Shown in pieces: positions 219 through 509 of a stretch of DNA of 575 nucleotides; the first letter of the stretch is position 1, and every line of letters begins with the position of its first letter. Source of the DNA: Escherichia coli (lineage in GTDB: Bacteria > Pseudomonadota > Gammaproteobacteria > Enterobacterales > Enterobacteriaceae); assembly GCF_003334385.1 (NCBI RefSeq), contig NZ_QOWN01000164.1. One strand, given 5' to 3'. Position numbers and translations under genes: made by a program. A model generated the notes under the pieces. That model saw only the letters and a list, made by a program, of their open reading frames with translations. It was not told the DNA's origin and made no database searches.

Positions 219-509
219 TTACAGCATTGTGCCCGGTTCGGGTTGTGTGTCTGTCATATCCGTCACCGGTGGCTCCGGCTGAATATCACCATTTTCCGTG
301 GTGACATCTTCCGCCTGTGGTTCCGGAAGCAGTTCCGGGGATGGTTCCGGCTGTGCACCAAGCAATTCATCCAGAATTGAATCCACTTCTGCATCAAGAC
401 GCGCCTCAAGGTTCTGCCGAAGTTGCTGTTTCAGTGCGCTCCGGACTTCTTCAGAGCGCAGGACTTCCTTCACTGCCTCAGCAGTGACCAGCGATTTTAT
501 TTCTGACAT
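219..509 (-). CDS. Hypothetical small acidic protein (96 aa): helical N-terminal half, Pro/Glu-rich low-complexity C-terminal tail with QPEP repeats; function unknown
   Basis: Complete ORF with ATG at 509..507 and TAA at 221..219. Codon usage is enteric-like (CTG, GAA, CCG). The terminator directly downstream supports this strand. The overlapping plus-strand ORF translates to Ser/Cys/Arg-rich nonsense typical of an antisense frame. By my count there are 22 acidic and 7 basic residues, and all 10 prolines fall in residues 54-92. I do not recognise the family. Confidence 0.8.
   Translation of the reverse strand: MSEIKSLVTAEAVKEVLRSEEVRSALKQQLRQNLEARLDAEVDSILDELLGAQPEPSPELLPEPQAEDVTTENGDIQPEPPVTDMTDTQPEPGTML

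Follow-up and report, generated by a model that had tools for sequence, protein, structure and literature searches.

The window, by which we mean the whole 575-nucleotide stretch of Escherichia coli DNA analysed here, runs on its minus strand from the 3' end of a DUF1378 gene through a complete DUF826 gene to the 5' part of a holin gene. The features are, by coordinate:

1-143, minus strand: 5' part of a P21-type class II holin gene, with the dual start MYQMEK (ATG at 143 and 134), from the sequence, PGAP and Pfam
151-166, minus strand: second, small stem-loop, CUUCCG AGUA CGGGAG, whose 3' arm holds the holin Shine-Dalgarno (from folding)
171-209, minus strand: intrinsic-terminator-like element, with a 12-bp stem and 5-nt loop at 209..181 followed by TTTGTTGTTG (180..171)
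219-509, minus strand: DUF826 coding sequence, 96 aa, stop codon 219-221, from the ORF listing, Pfam, PHROG and PGAP
222-356, minus strand: tail, residues 52-96, acidic (net charge -11) and rich in proline (10 residues), predicted to be disordered, tip GTML
309-350, no strand assigned: three 12-nt units in tandem, plus-strand sequence TTCCGGnnnnGG, encoding the run QPEPSPELLPEP (repeat search)
357-509, minus strand: conserved N-terminal domain, residues 1-51, from alignments, AlphaFold2 and dN/dS
510-534, minus strand: spacer of 25 nt separating the DUF1378 and DUF826 genes; GAGAA, 8 nt ahead of the start codon, is weakly Shine-Dalgarno-like
535-575, minus strand: 3' end of the DUF1378 gene, stop codon 535-537, from the parent-locus annotation and translation

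RefSeq includes E. coli chromosomes that match the whole window at 100% identity, and their PGAP annotation reads DUF1378 family protein, DUF826 domain-containing protein (WP_032222302.1) and class II holin, in that order. The last of these, a class II holin family protein of 71 aa according to PGAP, starts at 143, which is 75 nt after the DUF826 stop codon, and relatives of it match the Pfam family Phage_holin_2_1. The stem-loop at 166..151 is kept in intergenic variants and presumably resembles that reported for dual-start class II holin genes; by the same presumed likeness, the dual start and the sequestered Shine-Dalgarno (132-166) look like class II holin translational control.

The DUF826 protein and its family

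The gene at 219-509 begins with an ATG and spans 96 codons on the minus strand. Its product contains 22 aspartate and glutamate residues and 7 lysine and arginine residues, giving a net charge of -15 and a pI of 4.05. There are no prolines in residues 1-50 and ten in the tail, and QPEP occurs at residues 53, 77 and 89, with LPEP at 61. The initial annotation, made from the sequence alone, had described a strongly acidic protein with a net charge of about -15, a proline-free residue 1-50 segment and a QPEP-repeat tail, and all three are exact on counting. The PEP repeats are encoded by the three tandem 12-nt DNA units, and relatives are distinguished at this region by 18-27-nt indels in the alignment. 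From an alignment of 14 sequences AlphaFold2 models residues 10-17 and 20-49 as helices, with block pLDDT values of 80-87 for residues 21-50 and 47-61 for the tail, and a pTM of 0.29. The tail, where 11 of the 15 net negative charges sit, is of low confidence and unstructured in the model, and the prediction as a whole agrees with the helical N-terminal half and disordered tail proposed earlier.

The protein had also been regarded as an orphan, a claim that does not survive database searching: it belongs to DUF826 (PF05696) and PHROG_311, and RefSeq annotates the gene already. The Pfam match has E = 2.4e-28 and aligns residues 1-57 with model positions 1-59, Met1 falling on model position 1, and the PHROG_311 match (E = 6.6e-37) extends over the full length of the 96-aa protein. 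The N-terminal domain has dN/dS values of 0.10-0.31 among close pairs, indicative of purifying selection. Because of the Pfam match and these dN/dS values, the open reading frame at 219-509 is a real gene. The family is small, with 59 matches at E <= 0.001 in a profile search of 1.84 billion representative proteins, and all of the matches with identifiable or inferred hosts are from Enterobacterales. By tblastn the protein is found in 307 phage records, mostly of Stx1- and Stx2-converting phages including 933W (L0106) and VT2-Sakai, and in a set of 5426 complete E. coli genomes the DNA of its N-terminal domain was located at 2215 places, distributed over 983 genomes. As judged from these matches, the product is a typical and already catalogued member of DUF826, a family of Enterobacterales lambdoid and related prophages.

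In 933W and VT2-Sakai, as here, the DUF826 gene lies between nanS-p (L0105 in 933W) and S. The 933W product differs in having a tail of 39 residues rather than the 45 seen here, which is the longest tail type and contains an extra PEP unit, and in being annotated at 148 aa from a start further upstream in the same open frame. The DUF826 frame remains open for 60-66 codons upstream of the ATG, across most of DUF1378 in the +1 frame (window 510-575; 8847-9066 in the parent locus, L004), and this accounts for annotations of 134 aa and of 148 aa (933W L0106); the upstream frame is open in the E. coli clade and in locus L091. The Pfam model and the distant homologues favour the 96-aa start.

In P0033 and P0070, two proteins from the databases, DUF1378 is fused to DUF826, the junction being AAA-AGG-G. 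A programmed +1 frameshift at this site was considered and rejected: L038 and L072 have an altered site, L088, L090 and L091 lack it, the two frames stand in another relation in L088 and L090, and a stop intervenes in L022. A programmed DUF1378-DUF826 frameshift thus appears unlikely from these comparisons, and the fusions are probably homopolymer indels.

Two other identifications were also set aside. Several recent phage records, PV340545.1, PQ600364.1 and ON416862.2 among them, label the protein a 'head completion protein'; we treat this as an annotation artefact because the name finds no backing in Pfam, PHROGs, NCBIfam or a profile search of the PDB, and because the gene is not part of the head cluster. 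K-12 YdfR, which binds RNase E (2026 paper, PMC13232886) and whose gene is located between essQ and rrrQ, was considered as a possible DUF826 protein, and this was rejected since BLASTP gave no alignment between it and the 219-509 protein.

Alignment of the family separates two clades. Members of the long-tail clade come from E. coli and Shigella phages and include a Mu-like copy and the proteins P0110 and P0115; their tails are 28-45 residues long and Pro- and Glu-rich, and vary in length and sequence by indels, and a DUF1378 gene lies directly upstream in every case. These tails end in a conserved hydrophobic tip, GTML/TML, VMML/MML, DMMM/MMM or ATTL in the alignment (window 222-236 here). 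Tethered docking motifs and C-terminal degradation signals typically show such a hydrophobic tip on an acidic tail. The short-tail clade is made up of Salmonella-type, Pantoea and Pseudocitrobacter prophages (loci L089, L094 and L095-L103), with tails of 7-10 residues and a net charge of -1 to -3, and has neither DUF1378 nor nanS-p. Here DUF826 directly follows Rz or comes after a methyltransferase gene, and it is upstream of the terminase genes where the locus contains them; a genome scan for this clade gave only four loci, in Pantoea and Pseudocitrobacter. The association of DUF1378 with long tails is a comparison of two clades only and is confounded by phylogeny.

In the short-tail clade the DUF826 frame extends upstream by a conserved Trp-rich peptide of 16-17 residues (MWITQWLFS... 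or MKITQWLKS..., consensus MWIxxWLFS), and gene callers seem to start many of these homologues too late, after the extension. A hairpin lies 3' of most of the short-tail genes (L099 is the exception), with a clear T-run only in L094.

Across the family the tails range from 7 to 45 residues with a net charge of -1 to -11, and the conserved 51-aa domain has a net charge of -3 to -7. By these alignments, only the 51-residue helical N-terminal domain defines the family, and the strong negative charge is an elaboration of one clade and not part of the family core.

The variability of the tail, with its repeat-driven indels, and the many database copies that are frameshifted or truncated would fit an open reading frame that is a tolerated passenger, the DNA being kept mainly for the terminator and for the spacing to the holin ribosome-binding site. 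The N-terminal domain speaks against this with its low dN/dS, its conservation across genera in different contexts, and a start codon coinciding with the first position of the Pfam model, and we consider a passenger very unlikely.

Gene order and the cargo block

The gene order around DUF826 was surveyed at 80 IMG/VR loci, the counts taking in those loci whose contig extends far enough. The order is a nanS-p-type SASA esterase gene (75 of 75), DUF1378 (79 of 79), DUF826, a 75-nt spacer and a class II holin (74 of 74), and it is kept around the diverged P0110 and P0115, which are about 35-40% identical. DUF1378 encodes a 64-aa product in which a single transmembrane segment is predicted; the basic juxtamembrane stretch behind it, GYRAVRDFWRRQIDKRAAEK, has a net charge of +4 counted from the translation.

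In complete E. coli genomes DUF1378 is about as frequent as DUF826, with 2307 places over 1000 genomes; the holin has 8935 places over 2450 genomes, and about 25% of the prophage copies of the P21-type holin carry the DUF1378/DUF826 pair (2215 versus 8935 places). The same holin occurs without the pair in phage PhiR70_1, with a porin gene upstream, and in K-12 Qin, with cold-shock genes upstream. The Stx1 phage YYZ-2008 (L086:3562-4000) has nanS-p and the same holin, and about 450 nt of non-coding DNA with terminator-like hairpins replaces DUF1378 and DUF826; it can be viewed as a natural deletion or replacement variant for the two genes. The initial annotation put the gene just ahead of the lysis cassette, at what in lambdoid phages is the classic moron insertion site between the late promoter and S. 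The survey bears out a place next to the holin, in the variable cargo slot that runs from Q to S in lambdoid prophages, and the presence of DUF826 at about a quarter of the holin copies in complete E. coli genomes shows it to be accessory.

A Mu-like phage (LC727895.1, L088:1594-4246) has a divergent nanS-p/DUF1378/DUF826 trio close to its right, Com-like end and without a holin beside it; the DUF826 protein of this trio is 81 aa long and 51% identical over residues 1-51 by tblastn. The trio is followed directly by a Com-like gene and a C5 DNA methyltransferase gene, and the Mu-like phage is itself inserted in an Stx1a phage. The nanS-p/DUF1378/DUF826 block thus moves between unrelated phage types. 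In the E. coli and Shigella phages DUF826 is the last gene of this portable three-gene cargo block, which fills the slot between Q and the P21-type holin in about one-quarter of the holin-bearing prophages, including essentially all of the Stx phages surveyed. It is therefore the block, or at minimum the DUF1378/DUF826 pair, that is mobile, rather than DUF826 alone.

The terminator-like hairpin and transcription

The hairpin at 209..181, 3' of DUF826, has 12 pairs, seven of them G-C, and a U-run, UUUGUUGUUG, in the terminator scan. The surrounding region (130-221, 92 nt) folds more stably than all of 200 shuffled sequences (z = -3.6). Counted over ten distinct variants, 95% of the stem cells are paired; in five pairs one partner changes and the pairing persists, one pair is mismatched in six of the ten, and no pair is altered on both sides. 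The hairpin is therefore supported by conservation and shape and not by covariation. The T-runs are better in relatives (UUUUUCAUG, UUUUUUAUU), the window's TTTGTTGTTG being the weakest variant. Comparison with phages lacking the block shows no similarity until the holin ribosome-binding site is reached, which assigns the hairpin to the block, and several of the block-less phages have unrelated terminator-like hairpins just upstream of the holin. By its shape, then, the element at 209..171 can be classed as Rho-independent-terminator-like. Scanning the window with Rfam and for tRNAs yielded no hit above threshold.

RNA polymerase modified by lambda Q passes terminators that halt the unmodified enzyme. 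By analogy with lambdoid biology, DUF826 would be transcribed from the late promoter by Q-modified RNA polymerase reading through the hairpin, and the hairpin would halt unmodified polymerase and so keep stray transcription of the cargo out of the lethal lysis genes. Consensus scans found no sigma-70-like promoter in the window (weak or non-canonical sites would escape such a scan), and no promoter-like site on the coding strand of the parent prophage between 5347 and 9067, the 3.7 kb upstream of DUF826. Expression of nanS-p rises by 1-2.4 logs on mitomycin C treatment, in step with stx2a (PMC10462455). From these negative scans together with this induction we infer that DUF826 is transcribed late and in a Q-dependent manner from pR'. 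The parent prophage (NZ_CP116067.1, L004:3312-5704) has two reverse-strand genes between Q and nanS-p, encoding a 404-aa hypothetical protein and a 391-aa 'nucleoid-associated protein', to which late transcription must run antisense; PADLOC matched neither of them. The description of DUF826 as a self-terminated unit is therefore right in that a hairpin with a T-run lies 3' of the gene, but the gene is the last of a three-gene block and the scans found no promoter for it.

Much the same can be said of the proposal that DUF826 is a moron insertion. The moron concept for lambdoid phages is reportedly that of Hendrix and colleagues, cargo genes between Q and S such as stx being cases in point. DUF826 resembles a moron in being an accessory gene in the Q-to-S cargo slot, in occurring in only part of the related prophages and in having a terminator-like hairpin at its 3' side. 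It differs in that the long-tail gene always comes with nanS-p and DUF1378, so that the variable unit is the block or the pair, and in that no promoter-like site of its own was found. A further difference is that expression of a neighbouring gene of DUF826 follows prophage induction (PMC10462455).

Possible functions of DUF826

That no function can be assigned, as the initial annotation stated, agrees with our searches of homologues, profiles and literature, which turned up none. NCBIfam gave nothing for DUF826, PADLOC gave nothing for DUF826 or DUF1378, and literature searches with DUF826, DUF1378, L0106, 933Wp43 and the O157 locus tags found no functional report. Our best guess at a function carries low confidence; of the descriptive account of DUF826 and its block we are highly confident.

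The candidate function put forward initially was that of a DNA mimic, the acidic surface imitating DNA, or of another anti-defence or host-takeover factor. A small protein with a net charge of -15 and a pI of 4.05, encoded by an accessory phage gene, invites such a reading, and in size and strong net negative charge DUF826 is like Ocr, ArdA and Arn. Those proteins, however, are folded, with fixed carboxylate arrays, and the phage examples are made early in infection, whereas most of the charge in DUF826 is in the poorly conserved tail of a late-operon gene. That tail is predicted to be disordered and so would not be expected to form a fixed charge array; two helices and a disordered tail are what the model contains, and a folded, fixed array of acids is not seen. 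The acidity is moreover clade-specific, since relatives carry tails of 7-10 residues with a net charge of only -1 to -3 behind a domain of -3 to -7. A search of the PDB with the family profile matched no solved structure, and Foldseek of the model against BFVD and the PDB gave nothing, a result of little weight for a model that is close to one long helix. Expression from a late-operon site beside the lysis genes would also come too late to protect incoming DNA (PMC10462455). An anti-defence role is accordingly disfavoured, and we regard it as highly improbable.

We tentatively prefer, at somewhat under an even chance, the reading that DUF826 is a late-expressed partner of DUF1378 at the membrane, possibly acting on lysis timing. 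The two parts differ in strength: for the partnership with DUF1378 at the membrane, suggested by domain architecture and gene order, the chances seem about even, and a role in the timing of pinholin-dependent lysis, suggested by the gene's context and akin to the lysis-timing accessory that the initial annotation named as its alternative, is possible though rather unlikely. The 51-residue amphipathic helical domain would bind proteins on the cytoplasmic side of the inner membrane. Its mildly acidic helix would, in the long-tail clade, bind the basic cytoplasmic stretch of DUF1378, and in the short-tail clade the protein's own Trp-rich N-terminal extension may replace the DUF1378 anchor. The acidic disordered tail with its hydrophobic tip could be a flexible tether or a docking or turnover motif, and the process affected would be the timing of pinholin-dependent lysis.

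Pinholin lysis is the most likely process because DUF826 lies beside lysis genes in three different arrangements. It is next to the holin (at 75 nt) in the E. coli clade and after Rz in the Salmonella and Pantoea clade, and distant members are also between the lysis genes and the terminase. However, it is absent from about 75% of holin copies, so the pair is dispensable for the holin, and in the Mu-like phage it is not by lysis genes. Adjacency is in any case a weak argument for a lysis role, since genes between Q and the terminase lie near the lysis genes by default.

The constancy of nanS-p upstream of the pair in the long-tail clade (75 of 75 loci), and the intact trio in the Mu-like phage with no adjacent holin, would also suit a pair that serves NanS-p as an accessory in folding, membrane targeting or release and has nothing to do with the holin. 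YYZ-2008, though, has nanS-p and the holin without the pair, which is thus dispensable for nanS-p, and the Salmonella, Pantoea and Pseudocitrobacter prophages have DUF826 with neither nanS-p nor DUF1378. There is also no sequence link between DUF826 and the esterase, and we think it improbable that the pair is a NanS-p accessory.

A more specific form of the preferred membrane partnership is that DUF1378 and DUF826 make up a two-part module, one part membrane-anchored and the other cytoplasmic, that sets the time at which the P21-type pinholin fires. In the T4 RI/RIII antiholin pair, a membrane-tethered small protein and a small cytoplasmic helical protein delay holin triggering. The likeness to DUF1378 and DUF826, a single-pass protein of about 60 aa and a predicted cytoplasmic helical protein of about 90 aa encoded beside a holin gene, is one of architecture only, and homology is not claimed. 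Unlike the active domain of RI, which is periplasmic, the basic region of DUF1378 is predicted to be cytoplasmic, and the pair is absent from most phages that have the same holin. By this analogy such a module is conceivable but improbable.

The gene is an already catalogued family member, and so the proposal that it is a new, orphan candidate for anti-defence is not upheld. In Stx phages, 933W and VT2-Sakai among them, the timing of lysis governs the release of toxin, and the DUF1378/DUF826 pair is located there between nanS-p and the holin. If the two proteins did form a timing module, the hydrophobic C-terminal tip could act in docking or in turnover of the protein, which would then work as a timer, and the module, encoded upstream of S in essentially all of the Stx phages surveyed, would tune the release of Shiga toxin.
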